From assembly GCA_016933575.1 (NCBI GenBank), contig JAFGAR010000146.1:50130-114129 (forward strand): DNA of 64,000 bases, read 5' to 3'. The translations under genes and the position numbers were made by a program. This stretch comes from Candidatus Thorarchaeota archaeon. GTDB taxonomy: Archaea > Asgardarchaeota > Thorarchaeia > Thorarchaeales > Thorarchaeaceae. Positions 52,983 through 61,304 of this stretch are shown piece after piece; within the stretch, counting starts at the first letter, position 1; each line of letters opens with the position of its first letter. Under the pieces are notes generated by a model. That model ran no database searches, was not told the origin of the DNA, and saw nothing but the letters and a program-made list of their open reading frames with translations.

Positions 52983-53741
52983 ATGCAGGAGCGACTTGAA
53001 ACAGAACTCTATGCATCTATTGCAACCCTTGATCAATTGAAAAAGATGTTTGACCTTGGTGCTATTGACAATAGGTCATTCCAGAGAGAATCTCAGGCAC
53101 TTCTCCAAGAAGTACATCATCATATTGATAGTCTAAAACGTGTGGGTCTGGATATTAGCAAATTCATTACTGGTGAACAGATTACCGAAGCTTTTCCCGA
53201 TGCCGCTGACTTGCTTAGACTACGAGAATACCCTTCTGTACGATCGCTTCATGGAATGTCTTCAGATCAATATTATGACTATATTGGACTAGCTATTCTA
53301 GATGTTGCCACAGAACATGCATCTAAGGGTCTCATGGGTCTTGCTGAGTTAATTGTTGAAGTTGTAAGGTGTTTACCTGAATTAAAGACAGTAACTTACA
53401 ACGATGTTATTGAGGCGGTGAACCGAGTTGCTGAACATGGTCTTCTTCCAGGCATTCGAACACTTCGTGGCGGGGTGAAGGTTGTTGAGCTAAGGCCTCT
53501 GGAGCTACGTCGTGATCAAGCAGATGTTGTAAATCTTGCCGCCTCACGTGGGCATATCTCTGTTGAAGAAGTAATGATGCAACTGAAATGGTCCGAGGAC
53601 CACGCAAGACAGGTCTTAGCAAGCCTTGTTGAAACTGGCATGGCTGTTGCAGACATTCGTTTCTCAACTGGTGGAAGGTACTACTTCCCTGGTCTTCGTT
53701 CAAGAGATACCGCTGAGCCTCATGGTACTGGTCCATACTAA
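52983..53741 (+). CDS. ESCRT-II Vps22/Vps36-like (EAP30) tandem winged-helix protein with N-terminal Vps28-like helical hairpin
   Basis: YY..IG..I, GL..L.EL, D...A, P.EL..D...V..LA...G..S......L.W...A...L..L...G....D, YYFP match EAP30. Confidence 0.85.
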   Translation: MQERLETELYASIATLDQLKKMFDLGAIDNRSFQRESQALLQEVHHHIDSLKRVGLDISKFITGEQITEAFPDAADLLRLREYPSVRSLHGMSSDQYYDYIGLAILDVATEHASKGLMGLAELIVEVVRCLPELKTVTYNDVIEAVNRVAEHGLLPGIRTLRGGVKVVELRPLELRRDQADVVNLAASRGHISVEEVMMQLKWSEDHARQVLASLVETGMAVADIRFSTGGRYYFPGLRSRDTAEPHGTGPY

Positions 53742-54466
53742 GTAACTACGATAATTGCACCCCTCTTCTTATCAACCCACTCGGCAAATCCCTTCTCTAC
53801 CATGAGTGCCAAGACAATATAGAGGTCCTTTTCTGGTAATTTAGCAAAACTCTCCTCTGATTCTTGGATCACTATTGATTTCACATCAAGTCTTAGTTTG
53901 CCATGCTTCAATGCCCACTCATACAAGTAATCTGCCCAATCCTCTAGAGGTCTCCAGTAGACTCTTAGTTGCCTCTTTCGTTTGTCCATCCATTCGGCTA
54001 CTTCTTTGTCGATAAGAATCTGTACTATTATCTTAAAGGAATCTACCTTGTTTCTAAGATCCTTGAATGGTGGCTCACTGATGAATACAGACAATGAGAG
54101 AATATGGACATCATTATGTTCTGCCCATTGAAGTATGAAGTCCGCCCACTCTTCTGCCCAGAGGATCTTATCCTCCTCCCTTGAGGGTATGCCATACATC
54201 CACTCGCTCTCGATTGGTCCTCCCCAGGAGGGCATCAAAATCTCAAATTCCGTTGTCACTTCTTGAAGAGTTTCCTCAACTACTTGAGGTTCGGAGCTTT
54301 GGATATCTCTTGTTTCAGTAGTTTCTTTTTTTTCTACAATGACTTCTGGAGAGTGGGTCTGTTCCATAGTAGTTACCTTCTCAGGTACATCCACAGACTC
54401 TGTTTCTAGTGGTTCCTGAGAGACCTCTTTTTTTGACTTCTCTCTCCTCTTCTCTTTCATTCCCAC
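53738..54466 (-). CDS. ESCRT-II Vps25-like protein with acidic N-terminal extension
   Basis: W...IL.W, AEW.DK.K....V.WR..E.WA..LY.W match Vps25. Confidence 0.85.
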   Translation of the reverse strand: MGMKEKRREKSKKEVSQEPLETESVDVPEKVTTMEQTHSPEVIVEKKETTETRDIQSSEPQVVEETLQEVTTEFEILMPSWGGPIESEWMYGIPSREEDKILWAEEWADFILQWAEHNDVHILSLSVFISEPPFKDLRNKVDSFKIIVQILIDKEVAEWMDKRKRQLRVYWRPLEDWADYLYEWALKHGKLRLDVKSIVIQESEESFAKLPEKDLYIVLALMVEKGFAEWVDKKRGAIIVVT

Positions 54467-54469
54467 TCT

Positions 54470-55699
54470 TTAGGAACCCTCCGCCCAGTCAATGTATCTT
54501 CTGACATCCTCTGGGGGAGTAGCAGGTCTGATATTCTCAATAGCACTCAAGAAGTCATCCCTTGACACAGGTCGGATGTCTAAAATCTCTCTCTCATCAT
54601 CCATTCTTCCAGAACGCTGCAGGTCTCTTATTGGTTCCATAGATGCCTCTCTACAGACGATACTGATATCTCTCCCACTGTACCCCTCTGTGAGATCTGC
54701 AAGTTCTTCATAATCGACAGCTGGCGAGACCTCAATCTCTTCCATATGTATTTCCAGTATTGCCGCTCGTGCGGCTTTATCTGGTAACGGTACATGTAAT
54801 TTCTTCTCGAATCTAGACCTGAGTGCAAAGTCAATCTCCCATGGAAGATTCGTTGCTCCAATCACTGTCACTCTCTCATTCTGATTACTAGCAAGTCCTT
54901 GAAGTTCAGTGAGCAACTGTGTCTTCATTCGTCTCTCCCCGCCAACATCATCCCCAGAACGTGATACACCTATAGAGTCTAGTTCGTCGATGAATATGAT
55001 TGCTGGCTGATTCTTTCGTGCAAGTTCAAAGAGATGCATGACGAGACGCTCAGACTCACCAAGCCATTTACTTACAATATTAGCTGCTGACACATTGAAA
55101 AATGTGGCATTCACTTCGGATGCAACAGCTTTGGCGATAAGGGTCTTTCCACAACCAGCTGGACCATAAAACAGGATTCCTCTCCATGGCTGTCTTGCTT
55201 TTCCTTTGAATAACTCTGGATGTTTCATTGGTGTAATAATAGCATCACTGATTGCCTGTTTTGCATCCTGTAGACCAGCAACTTCTGACATCTTGATATT
55301 TGGCCGTTCAGAGATGATAGTATCTGATATCATTTCTCGGAGACGTTTTGTATCTTCATCAACATCTTGGTCCACAGATGTTTTTTGTCCAACTGAAACT
55401 GATTCTGCAGGACCAAAATCCGCCTTGGGTGGTTCTGTAAGACCATCTATTGGTCCTGCAGTCTTCTTTTTAATTCCTGAGAGAAATCTCACTCGATCTA
55501 CGCATTCCTGTGCTCGGTCGAAGTAATGTTTTCTGATTGATGGCAGCGATGCCGAATTTGACAATTTGATCAGAATCTTACTTGCCTTAAGGTAGAGCTG
55601 ACAAGCCTCGTTCTTAATCCCTCTCTGATCAAGTTCAATTGCTCTATCAAGTAGGCTCTTGAGGCCTCTATCCAACCGGTCATTATCTGATCCAGCCAT
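54470..55699 (-). CDS. vps4: Vps4 AAA+ ATPase (MIT + AAA)
   Basis: MIT: RAIELD..G...EA..LY..A; ERPN.K...VAGL..AK, PWRGIL.YGP.GCGKT, SKWLGESE, FIDE, GATN.PW. Confidence 0.95.
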   Translation of the reverse strand: MAGSDNDRLDRGLKSLLDRAIELDQRGIKNEACQLYLKASKILIKLSNSASLPSIRKHYFDRAQECVDRVRFLSGIKKKTAGPIDGLTEPPKADFGPAESVSVGQKTSVDQDVDEDTKRLREMISDTIISERPNIKMSEVAGLQDAKQAISDAIITPMKHPELFKGKARQPWRGILFYGPAGCGKTLIAKAVASEVNATFFNVSAANIVSKWLGESERLVMHLFELARKNQPAIIFIDELDSIGVSRSGDDVGGERRMKTQLLTELQGLASNQNERVTVIGATNLPWEIDFALRSRFEKKLHVPLPDKAARAAILEIHMEEIEVSPAVDYEELADLTEGYSGRDISIVCREASMEPIRDLQRSGRMDDEREILDIRPVSRDDFLSAIENIRPATPPEDVRRYIDWAEGS

Positions 55700-55942
55700 G
55701 CGAGTTCATGTCTACACAACCCGTAGGATGTTAAGACTTTCTGTGCTGATTATCGCATGATACATTTAGCGCCTTCTTGAGAGAATATTTGTGAAGGAAT
55801 TGGTAGATACAAAATAAACTGTCAAATTTGGATATAAATCAGATAACAATTGATACTACCTATGCTGACCAATACTAGTTGTGGACCTCTCTGCCTTCAT
55901 AACAGAAGGAAGCACATCACCAGAATCTGGTCCAGAAAAAGG

Positions 55943-56098
55943 TCATTCTTTCCCGCCGTCTTCAATTGTCCACCCATATGTATCAATAATATGCTGTCTT
56001 GCATCAGCAGCAGCGCCTGCGCTGTATTTTGAACCTCCCCCATGAAAAGCAACACCATGCTGCAAGATCAACTGCGACCATCCAATCAACAGGCTGTC
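55943..56098 (-). pseudogene. Remnant of a DUF285/BspA-like surface protein C-terminal cap
   Basis: Minus frame reads DSLLIGWSQLILQHGVAFHGGGSKYSAGAAADARQHIIDTYGWTIEDGGKE*; upstream in-frame stop at 56158 and no ATG. Confidence 0.6.
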
Positions 56099-56204
56099 CC
56101 CATATTGACCTATGCTAGACTGGATGTTTAAACGGAATCCTGAACTGCGAAGGTTTTAAACGCTTACTTCTCTATCAACTGCTTGAAATAGTGCTCAACA
56201 CAGG

Positions 56205-56822
56205 GTGAACATCGTGCCATCAATTAGAAAGGCGTTTGCTTGGGGAAAGAAGAAACCTGACATCGGTGAAGTTTCGAGCCGTCTGAGAATCCTCAGTAAA
56301 CAACTTGCTCGACAACGAAACAAACTCGAAAAGGAAGAACGTGACACACGGGCTCGAGCAGTGCGAGCACGAAAGGGTGGGCAAACGGATGCATATCGAA
56401 CCTATGCGATGGAGATGGTCCGATTTCGACGATATGCACTCTCTGTGGACAAATCACGCCTTCAGATCCTGAAGATTTTGGCACACCTTAATCGAGCACA
56501 GACATCAGCTAAGACGTCCCTTGCCTTACAAGAAGTAGCCAAAATATTAGGAATGCTAGGTGACTCGACTGATGCATCAAAAGTAGTAGCGAACGTTGAT
56601 GAAATTGCACGTCGTCTTGAAGAGTTTGAGATTGAATCTAGTATTTCCGACGAGGCTCTCGATTCCACCATGGAGATATCATCTGATGATCTTGATGATG
56701 CCCTAGCTGAAATAGATGCTGAAGCTGGTCTAGGCGAGGCTGCTCCAGTACGGAGACCAAAGAGTGAGATAGAGTCCTTAGAAGATGATATCAAATCTCT
56801 TGAACGCGAACTTGGGATGTAG
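56205..56822 (+). CDS. ESCRT-III (Snf7 family, Vps2/24/46-like class)
   Basis: Amphipathic N-terminus (IRKAFAWGKKK), basic helix 1, AYRTYAMEMVRFRR, acidic C-terminal half; start may be GTG 56214. Confidence 0.9.
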   Translation: MNIVPSIRKAFAWGKKKPDIGEVSSRLRILSKQLARQRNKLEKEERDTRARAVRARKGGQTDAYRTYAMEMVRFRRYALSVDKSRLQILKILAHLNRAQTSAKTSLALQEVAKILGMLGDSTDASKVVANVDEIARRLEEFEIESSISDEALDSTMEISSDDLDDALAEIDAEAGLGEAAPVRRPKSEIESLEDDIKSLERELGM

Positions 56823-56830
56823 ACCCAGAT

Positions 56831-58408
56831 TTACCTGAGTCGATCACGGGTATCTCTTGATTGACGTTCTAACTCTCTCCTATTATGGTAGGAGTCTCTC
56901 ATGAGATCTTTGTATCTTCGAATGAAGTCTTCAGTGACCAAACGTCCATCTCGTAAGAGGTGCACGGTCTCTCGAAGGGCCTGACGAATTGATTCTGCAT
57001 CCCTCTGTAGAGCATCAATAGACACTTGTGGTCGATATTGCGGATTATAGTCCCTATTCGGTTCACTTTGCCTTCCGAGAGTTCTTTCTAGTTCATCTCT
57101 GAAGCTATCTGGCGTGGCGTATCCCGCACCAAATGGAACATTACCCGTCTGATATCTTGGATGTGGCCATTGTTGTGGAGGACGTTCAAAACGTGTGTCT
57201 ACGGGTCGAGGTTCATCATGTTTTGAATTGGGCGAAAGTAGTGAATAGACCATCCCTTCAATCTTCAATCGCACATCGCTAATACTCATCTCTTCTTGCT
57301 CTAGCTTCCGAACTCGCTTCATATCCGTCTGAATATATCTCTCAAACTTGCGCGCAATCTCAATGTAGTCTGGTAATACCTTCTTCGTTTGGTCGCTGCA
57401 TGAGATCCTGACATCTCCCTGTTTGAGTTTGAGAACCAACCTCTTCCTCAAACGACCATCTTCCTCTAGTGACTTGAGATATATTAATGGAAAATCAAAG
57501 ATAACTTCCATTTTCCGTCTGACTCTTCCTGTTTCCGCGATTAGTAGAAGTCTCTTATTTGTGACATACAGAGTCCCAATCGCCTTGTCATTCTTCAAAA
57601 AGTCACTACCATTCACTTTCACATCTGGCAGAGCACAGACAGGCAATTCTCCTACTGCGAGCTGAGCATTATCATAGAAGTCTGTAAATTGATTCTTATA
57701 ATATTCAAGACCATCCAGTTGTCTTTTGACTTCCTTGAGTGTAATTCGAAGCGGTTCGAGCGCCTCGTCAACGTTTTGTTTGTAGTATATTCCCAATTCA
57801 GTTATACGATTAGTGATACCTTCAATGAACGGAAACTGCGATGGATTCCATCTAGTATAGTCAACAAAGTTCTTAGTTTCTGCAGCCATTCTGCGAGCTA
57901 CTATCTCAGCCTGATTTCCAATCCGATTCTTCAGAGCAGGCAATTCCTCTTGGATCGCCTCAATTTTTTCTTCCAACCATCGATAGTGGAGGAAGTTCGC
58001 CATTCTCAGAGAAACCAACAGCCTCTTTGTTACTGTCAGTTTATTATTGAACTCCCGGAGTTTTGTATGACCATATTGAATGTTCATTATAGAGTGACGC
58101 ATCTCAAGGGCTAGTTTTCTTCTTTTATCCTCCAGTATCTCAACACGAGACGAATGACATGTAGGACAAATATCCACAGTACGTCTTCCTTTGGTGAGAT
58201 TCTCTGACTCACACTCCGGACAACGTTCGAATTTCTCCCCTGGAATCGGTTCTCCTAAAGAATGGTGGCAGTTTCCACAGACGATGTACTCATTTGACCT
58301 ATTATCAAGGCAGTCTGAACAGAGTACCATTCCACAGTCTTCACAGATGTGCGTAGCTCTATTGTTCTGACAGGACTTGCATCTCTCAAGTGTAGAATCT
58401 TCTGTCAT
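56831..58408 (-). CDS. Zn-finger (B-box-like) / coiled-coil / PH(GRAM-GLUE-like) / steadiness-box-like multidomain protein
   Basis: Multiple CxxC pairs; GTLYVTNKRLLL PH strands; C-terminal LRDGRL..EDFIRRYKDL...YH.RR. Confidence 0.7.
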   Translation of the reverse strand: MTEDSTLERCKSCQNNRATHICEDCGMVLCSDCLDNRSNEYIVCGNCHHSLGEPIPGEKFERCPECESENLTKGRRTVDICPTCHSSRVEILEDKRRKLALEMRHSIMNIQYGHTKLREFNNKLTVTKRLLVSLRMANFLHYRWLEEKIEAIQEELPALKNRIGNQAEIVARRMAAETKNFVDYTRWNPSQFPFIEGITNRITELGIYYKQNVDEALEPLRITLKEVKRQLDGLEYYKNQFTDFYDNAQLAVGELPVCALPDVKVNGSDFLKNDKAIGTLYVTNKRLLLIAETGRVRRKMEVIFDFPLIYLKSLEEDGRLRKRLVLKLKQGDVRISCSDQTKKVLPDYIEIARKFERYIQTDMKRVRKLEQEEMSISDVRLKIEGMVYSLLSPNSKHDEPRPVDTRFERPPQQWPHPRYQTGNVPFGAGYATPDSFRDELERTLGRQSEPNRDYNPQYRPQVSIDALQRDAESIRQALRETVHLLRDGRLVTEDFIRRYKDLMRDSYHNRRELERQSRDTRDRLR

Positions 58409-58567
58409 ATGAGTACCTCCGGTAGTCTAATTCCATTGGGAAGATTATCCAAGAATAACCCGTGTATTACTCCTGAAACATTGTAGCTGATGATTGAATG
58501 TCACAATGTCCAAGCCACATTAGTTAAAACCAGTAGTTCTTTGCGACACCTTAGAAAGGAGATTGAT

Positions 58568-59953
58568 ATGGAAGACCTCGCACAAGCAGCAATTGATGCT
58601 GCTTTGAAGACTGGTGTAAGTTTCGCTGATGTGCGAATCGAGAACACTAAGACTACAATCATCGAGATCAGTGATGGTGTTTCGAAACAATCACTAAGCT
58701 CCCGCTTACGAGGCGCCGGAATTCGTGCATTCATTGATGGTGCCTGGGCTTTCGCGCAGACAACAGACCTAACGAACTCAGGAATGCAGGCAACTGGCGA
58801 ATCGGTAGCAAAGATGGCGATTGCTACAAAGGAGCGTGTTGCTGAAAAGTTTACTATCGACGGCCCCTCCTTTCAAGGTCACTTTGAGTATAAAGTATCG
58901 AAACCTTTCGATAGTATTTCTATTGATGAGAAAATGGCTCTTGTAAAAATGATTGACGACCAGGCAAGAGACTTTGATAAACGGATAGCCTCAACCCGGT
59001 CTGTATATGGCGACCTATGGACTGAATTATACATTGCTAACTCACTTGGAACGAATATCTACACTCAGAACTCAATTCCGCGACTAATATCCGCGCCTAC
59101 AGCCAAAGATGGTCCAAATAGACAACGCACATTCAAATCAATAGGGGTTCGGGGTGGATATGAAATCATGAGTACTGATGATGCCCAAAACATTGGTACT
59201 GAAGCTGCGAAGCTTGTCATTGATCTCCTTTCCTCTGTATCCGCCAAAGGAGGAACATATGATGTTGTCATGGATCCAATCTTGAATGGTGTTATGATTC
59301 ATGAAGCATTTGGCCATGCAGCTGAAGCTGATAATTGGCCAGCTCATTCCACGGTTCTTGAAGACAAGATAGGAAAGTCTGTTGGTCCTGACTATCTCAA
59401 TATTACTGATGATCCCACACTCAAAGACCAACGGGGTTCCTTCGAGTATGATTGGGAAGGTACCCGGACTAAGAAACGTGGTCTGGTCAAAGATGGTATA
59501 CTGACAGAAGTCCTACACAGTCTTGAGACTGCTAGTAGAATGGCGCTTGAACCTAATGGAGCAGCCAGAAGTCAATCCTTCATGTACGAACCACTTCCGC
59601 GAATGAGTAACACCTTCATGGAGCCAGGTGATTGGAATGTGGTAGAACTCATCGAAGATACAAAGACTGGAATTCTCCTCTGCAATTTCAACTATGGTTA
59701 TACCCAACCTGCAAAAGGGCAATTCATGTTCCAAGCTAGCCATGGATATCTGATTGAAAATGGAGAGATTGGACTGATGGTACGTGATGTATCGCTTGCA
59801 GGTAACATCCTTGAGGTCCTCGCAAAGGTGGATGCGATTGGAGATGACTTTATGCTGGATGCAGGAAGCTGTGGGAAAGGCGGGCAAGCCATTCCGACAA
59901 CTACAGGAGGTCCTCATGCGAGAATTAGACAGGTTCCCGTAGGAGGTATGTAG
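58568..59953 (+). CDS. tldD: TldD metalloprotease subunit
   Basis: G.GIRA..DGAW.FA, HEAFGH..E, PRMSNTF..PG, CGKGGQ. Confidence 0.93.
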   Translation: MEDLAQAAIDAALKTGVSFADVRIENTKTTIIEISDGVSKQSLSSRLRGAGIRAFIDGAWAFAQTTDLTNSGMQATGESVAKMAIATKERVAEKFTIDGPSFQGHFEYKVSKPFDSISIDEKMALVKMIDDQARDFDKRIASTRSVYGDLWTELYIANSLGTNIYTQNSIPRLISAPTAKDGPNRQRTFKSIGVRGGYEIMSTDDAQNIGTEAAKLVIDLLSSVSAKGGTYDVVMDPILNGVMIHEAFGHAAEADNWPAHSTVLEDKIGKSVGPDYLNITDDPTLKDQRGSFEYDWEGTRTKKRGLVKDGILTEVLHSLETASRMALEPNGAARSQSFMYEPLPRMSNTFMEPGDWNVVELIEDTKTGILLCNFNYGYTQPAKGQFMFQASHGYLIENGEIGLMVRDVSLAGNILEVLAKVDAIGDDFMLDAGSCGKGGQAIPTTTGGPHARIRQVPVGGM

Positions 59954-59954
59954 A

Positions 59955-61304
59955 ATGGATACCAATCTTCTCGATATTGCTGAGAAAGCTGTAAATCTTG
60001 CAGAAAGACAAGGTGCTGATCAAGCTGAGGTATACATCGGACGAATTCAATCCTTTGAGATAGAAGCAGAGAACAATGCAATAAAATATGCCAGTGAACG
60101 AATTGATGCAGGAATAGGAATTCGCACCATCGTTGGTAAGAAAATTGGTTTTGCCTATGTGACTACATTGGATGATACTGATATTCAAGAAGCTGTGTCA
60201 AATTCATTAAGCCTTGCTAGGGCATCTATCCCCGATCCTGATTTTGTTTCCTTACCAGACTATTCTAGTGACTATCATCAGACAAGAGGTCTCTTTGATA
60301 AACGGATTCAAGACCTTACTTCTGAAGAAGCCGCAGAAATCATAATTCGAATCATCGATACATCAAAGCAATTACTGGTAGATCGCGATTACGCAATTGA
60401 AGCTGCTGTGTATACATCATCCAGCTCCAGTGCTATCGTAAATTCTTTGGGTATTTCAAAGTCTGAGTCTAAGACCTTTATCTCCGTCAATGGAACCTCC
60501 ATCATCAAGGAAGATGGCGATCAGACTCTCAGTTATGATTATCAACTATCTCGCAATTTTGATGATATTGACCCAGAGTGGGTCGGGGAGAGCTCAGCTT
60601 CTCTCGCCATAAAAGCGCTCCATCCAAAGACCATTGAGGGAGGAGAGATGCCAGTGATTTTTGCTCCTCTTGGAGCCAGTGCCATTCTCGGGCGAGGATT
60701 TGCAGGCGCTATCAATGCAGAAGAAGTCCAGATGGGTCGTTCTTACATTGCTGATGCATTCGGTGAAAAGATAGCTTCAGACAAGCTTGAAATTATTGAT
60801 GACGGAGTCTTGCCTAGTGGTATTGGATCTAGAACATATGATGCTGAGGGATACAGGTCACAACGGACTGTGATCATTGAGGGTGGTGTTTTGAAGAGTC
60901 TTCTTCATAATTCCTATACTGCAAACAAAGATGATGTTGAGAATACTGGAAATGCAAGTCGTCCATCATATTCTGGTCTACCTAGTATCTCAACTAGCAA
61001 TTTCATGGTGAAACCTGGTAAAGGCGACCTTGAAGAATTCATCTCAGAAACCAAGAGAGGTGTGGTCTGTAGGAATACCGGGGACCTTCCCAATATGACA
61101 ACAGGCGACCTTAGTGCCATGATTATGGAGGGTTACTATATTGAGGATGGCGAGATTCAACATGCTCTCAAGAACACACTCATTGGAATAAACATGAAAC
61201 AATTGCTTCAACGTATCGCACATGTCGGTAACGATATTCGCACAGCTTCTGCGATGATCACACCCTCACTTGTAATCGAGAGAGCAAATATCACATCAGG
61301 ATAG
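59955..61304 (+). CDS. tldE: TldE/PmbA subunit
   Basis: GIGIR......GFA, YDAEG, STSN....PG, no HExxxH; directly follows tldD. Confidence 0.92.
   Translation: MDTNLLDIAEKAVNLAERQGADQAEVYIGRIQSFEIEAENNAIKYASERIDAGIGIRTIVGKKIGFAYVTTLDDTDIQEAVSNSLSLARASIPDPDFVSLPDYSSDYHQTRGLFDKRIQDLTSEEAAEIIIRIIDTSKQLLVDRDYAIEAAVYTSSSSSAIVNSLGISKSESKTFISVNGTSIIKEDGDQTLSYDYQLSRNFDDIDPEWVGESSASLAIKALHPKTIEGGEMPVIFAPLGASAILGRGFAGAINAEEVQMGRSYIADAFGEKIASDKLEIIDDGVLPSGIGSRTYDAEGYRSQRTVIIEGGVLKSLLHNSYTANKDDVENTGNASRPSYSGLPSISTSNFMVKPGKGDLEEFISETKRGVVCRNTGDLPNMTTGDLSAMIMEGYYIEDGEIQHALKNTLIGINMKQLLQRIAHVGNDIRTASAMITPSLVIERANITSG

Follow-up and report, generated by a model that had tools for sequence, protein, structure and literature searches.

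A Thorarchaeal Znr_CC_PH_SB protein encoded beside ESCRT-III is a probable ESCRT-I-like adaptor

What protein is encoded tail to tail with ESCRT-III in a Thorarchaeal ESCRT locus, and what might it contribute to that machinery? The window analyzed here is a stretch of 64,000 nucleotides from contig JAFGAR010000146.1 of a Candidatus Thorarchaeota assembly (GCA_016933575.1). The gene in question occupies positions 56831..58408 on the reverse strand, and the open reading frame list and translation give it an ATG start and 525 amino acids plus a stop codon. An initial annotation, made from the sequence alone, had described it as convergent with ESCRT-III, and this is correct: the last base of an ESCRT-IIIA gene of the Snf7 family (56205..56822, forward strand; Pfam Snf7, E = 2.4e-12) lies 8 nt from the stop codon at 56831-56833. 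The same locus encodes Vps4 (54470..55699, reverse strand; Pfam matches to MIT, AAA, and Vps4_C), the ESCRT-II subunit Vps25 (53738..54466, reverse strand; Pfam ESCRT-II, E = 1.8e-15), and Vps22 with an N-terminal Vps28-like hairpin (52983..53741, forward strand; Pfam EAP30, E = 1.2e-12).

The protein almost certainly belongs to the Asgard family Znr_CC_PH_SB (asCOG cog.011556). Makarova et al. (2024, mBio 15:e00335-24; PMC10936438) defined this family, considered it a likely ESCRT-I component that is ancestral in Asgard archaea, and expected its PH domain to bind membrane. The published family has the same zinc units, helical or coiled-coil region, PH domain, and C-terminal steadiness box (SB), the same Asgard-restricted range, the same ESCRT neighborhood, and the same proposed role; our protein differs from it in nothing substantive. 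A search for homologues returned 165 at E ≤ 1e-3, the closest with 79 per cent identity, and their source names point to Thorarchaeota. An orthologue, ThorAB25_08990, was used as ‘SB’ in yeast two-hybrid assays by Hatano et al. (2022, Nat Commun 13:3398; PMC9192718), who wrote of the free-standing SB protein that it ‘may interact with Vps28’. The database protein P0050, which matches both termini of ThorAB25_08990, is 68 per cent identical to the protein studied here over 96 per cent of its length, and the ThorAB25_08990 locus has the same gene order as the window (SB, ESCRT-IIIA, Vps4, Vps25, Vps22). The published ThorAB25_08990 gene model begins at an internal methionine (MCEDCG...) and is about twenty-one N-terminal residues shorter; the missing stretch includes the first CxxC pair, invariant across the family. 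Our literature search found no work on Znr_CC_PH_SB later than these 2022–2024 papers; a 2025 preprint about the redeployment of Asgard ESCRT systems does not mention steadiness, PH domain, zinc, Znr, Vps28, or Vps23.

We examined the protein domain by domain, using an AF2 model of all 525 residues (mean pLDDT 88.6, pTM 0.70). The N-terminal zinc module spans residues 8-91 (58136..58387, reverse strand). Six CxxC pairs had been noted in the initial annotation, and they are indeed present, at residues 10, 22, 30, 44, 63, and 81; all twelve cysteines are invariant in a 69-sequence alignment. By their number, these pairs would be enough for three putative zinc sites. The module is beta-rich in the model (about residues 10-91). 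Its supposed likeness to a B-box is reflected in Pfam matches that are all below cut-off, with zf-B_box in 31 of 66 family members and DZR, the double zinc ribbon, in 18 of 66; sub-threshold zinc-ribbon matches also occur across the family. On the Thorarchaeal protein itself, zf-B_box reaches 19.7 bits and so falls short of its cut-off of 24.1. When residues 1-95 were folded alone (pLDDT 80.4), the top structural match had Z 5.2, and RING, B-box, and ZZ folds (Z 4-5) were tied with plain zinc ribbons such as those of MCM and ribosomal proteins (all Z ≤ 5.2). The module is followed by the long helical region that had been read from the sequence (residues 92-247; 57668..58135, reverse strand), which is the ‘CC’ of the published name. 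The model resolves it into three long helices between the zinc module and the PH domain (92-136, 144-177, and 189-241; pLDDT above 95), with a conserved LR...H.P.LE motif around residues 134-146.

The next domain (residues 248-359; 57332..57667, reverse strand) is PH-like, of the GRAM/GLUE/bacterial-PH type according to VIA-align and Pfam. Seven strands and a C-terminal helix form a PH-type fold over residues 256-353 of the AF2 model. With residues 243-359 as query, the best VIA-align comparison was with the PH-GRAM domain of MTMR2 (Z 12.7, rmsd 2.6 Å, 107 aligned residues), followed by Lam6 (Z 11.9) and the GLUE domain of EAP45 (2hth_B; Z 11.4, rmsd 3.6 Å, 107 residues). These scores agree with the earlier description of a PH/GRAM-like domain that resembles GLUE, and the GTLYVTNKRLLL motif on which it drew is present, with a core of G.L..TNKRL.F kept across the family. 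A basic TNKR...KK patch is also conserved. Among the 66 members, Pfam identified bPH_3 in 35, GRAM in 13, and the GLUE domain of Vps36 (Vps36_ESCRT-II; best E = 4.3e-5) in six, and the Thorarchaeal protein is not one of these six. Many PH subtypes are structural neighbors at nearly equal scores, tied to about 1-2 Z units, so GLUE-like binding of lipid or ubiquitin cannot be deduced from the fold alone. Membrane binding by this domain is a prediction to which we give about even odds. Foldseek's best matches to the whole model were the DH-PH RhoGEFs Vav1, Dbs, and ECT2. We rejected homology to these proteins because they superpose with an rmsd of 17-25 Å, and the matches are explained by helices followed by a PH domain in both; long VIA-align alignments had an rmsd of 7-19 Å.

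Two short helices come next (residues 360-391; 57236..57331, reverse strand), modeled by AF2 at 363-371 and 377-391 with pLDDT of about 90-97 and carrying a conserved IE..I..LL motif. They lead into a linker of sixty-nine residues (392-460; 57029..57235, reverse strand) that is probably disordered, judging from pLDDT, composition, and alignment. It had been described as rich in proline, arginine, and glutamine, which its composition confirms (twelve Pro, nine Arg, five Gln); its pLDDT is 41-64, and it shows little conservation even in close homologues. A short helix at 433-445 of the linker was considered as a possible binding motif and dropped because it too is poorly conserved among close homologues. 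In other lineages these proteins span 480-910 amino acids, a spread that is due to variation in linker length.

The C-terminal helical hairpin (residues 461-525; 56834..57028, reverse strand) is a steadiness box of the Vps23 type. AF2 places its helices at 464-486 and 492-524 with a pLDDT of about 97. A family profile searched against the PDB (177,635 distinct sequences) had chains of the Vps23 ESCRT-I core as its two best matches: yeast Vps23 (2p22_A; E = 4.7e-5, profile 462-518 to chain 115-171) and 2f66_A (E = 1.3e-4). Human TSG101 followed (6vme_B; E = 1.6e-3), and Vps37B was weaker (6vme_C; E = 0.07). The Pfam family Vps23_core was matched in 15 of the 66 members (best 7.2e-6), and an HMM built from Thorarchaeal C-termini placed a hairpin at the far C-terminal end in most of the distant homologues. 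For the Thorarchaeal protein alone, the one SB-related Pfam match was to Mod_r at a sub-threshold E of 0.088 (13.2 bits, cut-off 30.1; residues 457-512, profile positions 90-144), a family matched by 3 of 66 members. When the single sequence was compared with the PDB by phmmer, nothing significant was returned (best E = 0.28), and Vps23 and TSG101 were reached by the family profile only. Significance is gained at the level of the family profile, and there the proposed resemblance to the Vps23 steadiness box stands. The hairpin probably docks the protein to the ESCRT machinery through SB-type contacts.

The genomic context points the same way. Across thirty Thorarchaeal loci, ESCRT-IIIA was adjacent and convergent in every case; the two genes are 11-28 nt apart, except at one locus where the distance is about 170 nt. 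In twenty-nine of the loci Vps4 comes next after ESCRT-IIIA, and the thirtieth ends too early to show it. We also looked at five genomes from five other Asgard families, and in all five an Snf7 gene lies 0.1-8.5 kb from the family gene, with Vps25 located elsewhere. This linkage to ESCRT-III and not to Vps25 means that a direct role with ESCRT-III fits at least as well as bridging between ESCRT-I and ESCRT-II. The family profile matched 283 of 301 sampled Asgard genomes (E ≤ 1e-5); the weakest matches (E from 1e-6 to 1e-11) may be accounted for by the zinc module alone.

We then considered what the hairpin might bind. The initial annotation had named a Vps28-like hairpin in 52983-53741, and such a hairpin does exist: the N-terminus of Vps22 has a weak Pfam VPS28 match (residues 8-63, profile positions 3-60), human SNF8 (3cuq_A) matches this protein over residues 95-239 only (E = 1.1e-15), and Makarova et al. 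(2024; PMC10936438) describe Asgard Vps22 as carrying a fused SB. The Vps22 N-terminus is also the best VPS28 match in the genome. A second VPS28 candidate, a 280-aa open reading frame on another contig (C160; E = 0.015), gained no support from a PDB search and was set aside. No VPS28, Vps23_core, UEV, or ubiquitin domain scored above Pfam cut-offs in the source genome, which is 85.5 per cent complete, so genes for Vps28, UEV, or ubiquitin may be present and missed. Within the protein itself, Pfam found neither a UEV nor a UBC domain and the N-terminus is the zinc module, as had been claimed for UEV. As a UEV-type Vps23, a free Vps28, and ubiquitin were not detected, the Vps28-like hairpin fused to Vps22 is the most likely partner. 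Whether it is the specific partner of the SB hairpin is a point on which we would place even weight for and against.

Taken together, the explanation we favor, and regard as probable, is that this protein is a Thorarchaeal member of Znr_CC_PH_SB that acts as an ESCRT-I-like adaptor. Its SB hairpin would assemble into an ESCRT-I-style headpiece with the Vps28-like hairpin on the N-terminus of Vps22. Through this pairing the adaptor would engage ESCRT-II (Vps22 and Vps25) directly and, by way of it, ESCRT-III and Vps4. Membrane placement of the complex would fall to the PH domain, and the binding of cargo or a partner, independently of ubiquitin, to the zinc module. Joined by a long flexible linker, the membrane- and cargo-facing head and the ESCRT-docking hairpin could work at a distance from each other. 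A more ambitious version is that, in Thorarchaeia, the adaptor and the hairpin-bearing Vps22 make up a complete, ubiquitin-independent ESCRT-I/II supercomplex in which the adaptor is a dedicated membrane-bound nucleator of ESCRT-IIIA, a part for which it would be marked out by the gene pairing with ESCRT-IIIA that is conserved across Asgard families. We offer this version tentatively, as possible and on balance doubtful.

The same gene pairing also suits a protein that mainly recruits or nucleates ESCRT-IIIA directly from the membrane, in the manner of CdvA and bypassing ESCRT-II. This reading overlaps with the adaptor we prefer and does not exclude it. The ESCRT-III gene is the sole neighbor conserved in all sampled Asgard families, CdvA-like coiled-coil Pfam matches occur in 3 of 66 members, and homology between SB and CdvA hairpins has been reported. 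We nevertheless think it unlikely as the main role, given that no ESCRT-III-binding motif, such as the E3B peptide of CdvA, was identified in the protein, and that ESCRT-IIIA of the window lacks a winged-helix extension to bind (Pfam: Snf7 only). The SB, moreover, is a module for hairpin–hairpin assembly, and the neighboring Vps22 has a matching hairpin. In crenarchaea, CdvA is a membrane-proximal adaptor, as is predicted for our protein, with an SB-related helical hairpin, encoded beside ESCRT-III and Vps4 genes; however, it has a PRC-barrel N-terminus and the E3B peptide, neither of which is seen here, and it lacks a PH domain and a zinc module.

Other readings concern the two ends of the protein. 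A zinc module of RING or B-box type could be an E3 ligase domain that couples ubiquitin-like modification to ESCRT, which would fit the sub-threshold Pfam matches to B-box and ANCHR-like B-box families, a family profile match to the RING of RNF4 (E = 1.4e-4), and the low-scoring structural resemblance to RING, B-box, and ZZ domains. The legend to Supplementary Fig. 8 of Hatano et al. (PMC9192718) also names RING, CC, and PH for selected Asgard ESCRT-I-like proteins; that these labels may refer to the present family is our own reading of the legend. We consider such an activity very improbable: the structural matches stop at Z 5.2, level with MCM- and ribosomal-type zinc ribbons, Makarova et al. 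(2024; PMC10936438) describe the module as three zinc ribbons, neither ubiquitin nor UEV genes were detected in the 85.5 per cent complete genome, and Thorarchaeota are reported to lack ubiquitin. At the other end, the hairpin might be a generic charged one (SHOCT-like or coiled-coil) in a protein unrelated to ESCRT. Helical hairpins are common, and the single-sequence evidence is limited to the sub-threshold Mod_r match. This reading is effectively refuted, and we give it almost no weight, in view of the Vps23 and TSG101 profile matches, the Vps23_core matches, the absence of SHOCT from the twenty-five commonest Pfam families among the 66 members, and ESCRT synteny in 30/30 Thorarchaeal loci and 5/5 other families.

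For the adaptor we prefer, the closest eukaryotic counterparts are Vps23/TSG101 and Vps36/EAP45. The SB hairpin of Vps23/TSG101 is also C-terminal and is homologous to the Thorarchaeal one at profile level, and both proteins combine a Pro-rich flexible region with long helices. In Vps23/TSG101, however, the N-terminus is a UEV domain, in place of which the Thorarchaeal protein, from a genome with no ubiquitin system detected, has its zinc module; the coiled-coil stalk enters the SB directly, whereas here the helices precede the PH domain and the sixty-nine-residue linker separates that part from the hairpin. Vps23 has neither zinc module nor PH domain. With Vps36/EAP45 the protein shares a PH fold, superposable on the GLUE domain of EAP45, zinc fingers in the same polypeptide (compare the NZF of yeast Vps36), and a proposed role in linking the membrane to ESCRT-I/II. 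The GRAM-type PH domains of MTMR2 and Lam6 score at least as well as GLUE, so this superposition establishes no specific relationship to it. Vps36/EAP45 also has a tandem winged-helix (EAP30) core, of which Pfam and the AF2 model find none here, and the Thorarchaeal zinc module, rather than interrupting the PH domain, stands at the N-terminus.

Earlier papers (Hatano 2022; Makarova 2024) had already given the architecture of this protein, its name, its distribution, and the role proposed for it, and the analysis is a correct rediscovery and no new kind of system. What it adds is the profile-level homology to Vps23 and TSG101, a PH fold at Z of about 12, the invariance of the twelve cysteines, a quantified linkage to ESCRT-IIIA, and the variation in linker length behind proteins of 480-910 aa. 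It also brings a caution: in the published Thorarchaeota construct, as in many database gene models, the first invariant pair of zinc ligands is missing. The family is near-universal in Asgard archaea and unites modules that eukaryotes divide between Vps23 (steadiness box) and Vps36 (PH/GLUE and zinc fingers), and it thus bears on the origin of the eukaryotic ESCRT-I/II machinery.

The adaptor gene (56831-58408, minus strand) is a single open reading frame with an ATG start that encodes 525 amino acids. The source names attached to its nearest homologues point to Thorarchaeota. It belongs to a compact ESCRT locus with Vps22/EAP30 (52983-53741, plus strand), Vps25 (53738-54466, minus strand), Vps4 (54470-55699, minus strand), and the ESCRT-III/Snf7 gene ESCRT-IIIA (56205-56822, plus strand). 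The last of these is convergent with the adaptor gene, and 8 nt lie between its last base and the adaptor's stop codon. Vps4 and ESCRT-IIIA are divergently transcribed; the gap of about 500 nt between them (55700-56204) contains no convincing open reading frames and presumably holds both promoters. Immediately downstream, and transcribed away from the adaptor gene, is a tandem pair of ordinary-looking TldD/PmbA metallopeptidase genes (58490-61304, plus strand).

The ESCRT linkage is conserved well outside the window, contrary to one of the two outcomes that the initial annotation had named as refuting it. The adaptor gene is convergent with ESCRT-IIIA in all thirty Thorarchaeal loci (including the window's own); the two genes are 11-28 nt apart, except in one locus, where the distance is about 170 nt. 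Vps4 comes next in twenty-nine, and the thirtieth locus stops short of where Vps4 would be. All five genomes representing other Asgard families (one each) have a Snf7 gene 0.1-8.5 kb from the adaptor homologue, and in two of the five the pair are immediate neighbours in convergent orientation; Vps25 is located elsewhere in each. In a sample of 301 Asgard genomes, the family profile matched 283 at E ≤ 1e-5, and many families gave strong matches over the full length. Across Thorarchaeal loci L009-L037, divergence is faster in the adaptor gene than in the genes beside it: in local alignments the adaptor is 55-80 per cent identical to the window copy, versus 64-90 per cent for ESCRT-IIIA. One genome of the large Asgard family f9 (G207) has the adaptor gene near one ESCRT-III paralogue and Vps25 beside the other, on a different contig.

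Each element listed in the initial annotation was recovered in the protein. Its six CxxC pairs begin at residues 10, 22, 30, 44, 63, and 81, and all twelve cysteines are invariant across a 69-sequence alignment with identities down to about 20 per cent. The AlphaFold2 model, built from a 66-sequence alignment, was confident (mean pLDDT 88.6, pTM 0.70). It places a beta-rich zinc module (residues ~10-91) before three long helices (92-136, 144-177, 189-241), a domain of seven strands and a helix (256-353), two short helices (363-391), a low-confidence linker (392-460), and a terminal helical hairpin (464-486 and 492-524). The linker is rich in Pro, Arg, and Gln and poorly conserved even between close relatives. 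Published names for the zinc module appear to differ: the legend of Supplementary Fig. 8 of Hatano et al. (2022, PMC9192718) lists 'RING', and Makarova et al. (2024, PMC10936438) describe three zinc ribbons. We folded residues 1-95 alone (pLDDT 80.4) and used this model for a structure search, in which zinc ribbons (MCM, ribosomal proteins) tied with RING, B-box, and ZZ domains (maximum Z 5.2); the search gave no positive support for E3 ligase activity.

Residues 243-359 of the model aligned (VIA-align) with the PH-GRAM domain of MTMR2 (Z 12.7, rmsd 2.6 Å, 107 residues, 21% identity), the PH-like domain of Lam6 (Z 11.9), and the GLUE domain of human EAP45 (Z 11.4, rmsd 3.6 Å). Among sixty-six family members, Pfam matches were to bPH_3 (35), GRAM (13), and the Vps36 GLUE model (6). 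The predicted fold is firmly PH-type, of the GRAM/GLUE/bacterial-PH kind; as the subtypes are tied, we do not assign the domain to GLUE in particular.

Searched as a single sequence, the protein gave one steadiness box (SB)-related match, a sub-threshold hit to Mod(r) (E 0.088, residues 457-512). We then searched the family profile against all PDB sequences. The best match was the Vps23 chain of the yeast ESCRT-I core (2p22_A, E 4.7e-5, with profile positions 462-518 aligned to residues 115-171 of the chain), with further matches to 2f66_A (E 1.3e-4), 2caz_A (E 6.1e-4), human TSG101 (6vme_B, E 1.6e-3), and Vps37B (6vme_C, E 0.07). Pfam Vps23_core was found in fifteen of sixty-six family members (best 7.2e-6). 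The hairpin is therefore homologous to the Vps23 SB at profile level and is not a generic SHOCT-like motif, the other outcome that the initial annotation had named as refuting it. An HMM made solely from Thorarchaeal C-termini recovered the hairpin in most of the distant homologues (480-910 aa), in each case at the very C-terminal end, so the whole architecture is conserved and linker length alone varies. Homologues in the large Asgard family f9 (e.g. G065:C3:70640-72661 and G207:C7:819755-821689) are 620-780 aa, and their extra length likely lies in the linker, as in the longer distant homologues.

The window's own assembly is 85.5% complete; it carries two Snf7 genes and has no match reaching the cut-off for VPS28, Vps23_core, UEV, or ubiquitin. 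VPS28 was matched best by residues 8-63 at the N-terminus of the window Vps22. The match of this Vps22 to human SNF8, through its winged-helix body, begins only at residue 95, in agreement with the statement by Makarova et al. (2024, PMC10936438) that Asgard Vps22 is fused to an SB. Just one further ORF in this genome gave a VPS28-like signal, a 280-aa frame on contig C160 (L002:1288-2130, minus strand; Pfam VPS28 E 0.015, positions 54-143 of the profile). It found no support among PDB sequences, and it is therefore probably not a Vps28.

We suggest that the adaptor hairpin joins an ESCRT-I-type headpiece; its most plausible partner in this organism is the Vps28-like hairpin carried by Vps22, as originally proposed. 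The PH domain would bind membrane via the basic residues of its conserved TNKR...KK patch, and the zinc module may recognise cargo or a partner without ubiquitin. The disordered linker could let the two ends act at a distance from each other. The chief alternative, partly compatible with this headpiece, is that the adaptor nucleates ESCRT-IIIA directly in a CdvA-like manner; in its favour, the neighbour conserved across Asgard families is ESCRT-III and not ESCRT-II.

Profile homology, the PH fold, ESCRT linkage, and the published family all support the earlier reading of an ESCRT-I-like adaptor. The family is already known, having been published in 2022-2024. Makarova et al. (2024, PMC10936438) define Znr_CC_PH_SB (asCOG cog.011556) by its three zinc ribbons, coiled coil, PH domain, and SB; they regard it as probably part of ESCRT-I and expect the PH domain to associate with membrane. 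The literature we compared treats cog.011556 as a steadiness/Vps23-box group. The Thorarchaeota 'SB' protein ThorAB25_08990 lies in the order SB, ESCRT-IIIA, Vps4, Vps25, Vps22 and was assayed by yeast two-hybrid by Hatano et al. (2022, PMC9192718), who suggest a possible interaction between the free-standing SB protein and Vps28. The window has the same gene order, and a database protein whose two termini agree with those of ThorAB25_08990 is 68% identical to the window adaptor. Given these descriptions, the initial interpretation was a correct and independent rediscovery of what had been published.

Many database gene models of the family begin at an internal Met, giving 503-505, 471, and 416 aa forms that lose at least one invariant CxxC pair (window 58322-58408, minus strand, residues 1-29; compare proteins P0020-P0119). 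The published ThorAB25_08990 two-hybrid construct starts at MCEDCG and is thus missing C10/C13, the first pair. In constructs designed from such truncated models, a zinc site may be incomplete. Beyond confirmation and numbers, the main residual value of this analysis is practical: many gene models omit the first invariant CxxC pair of the family.
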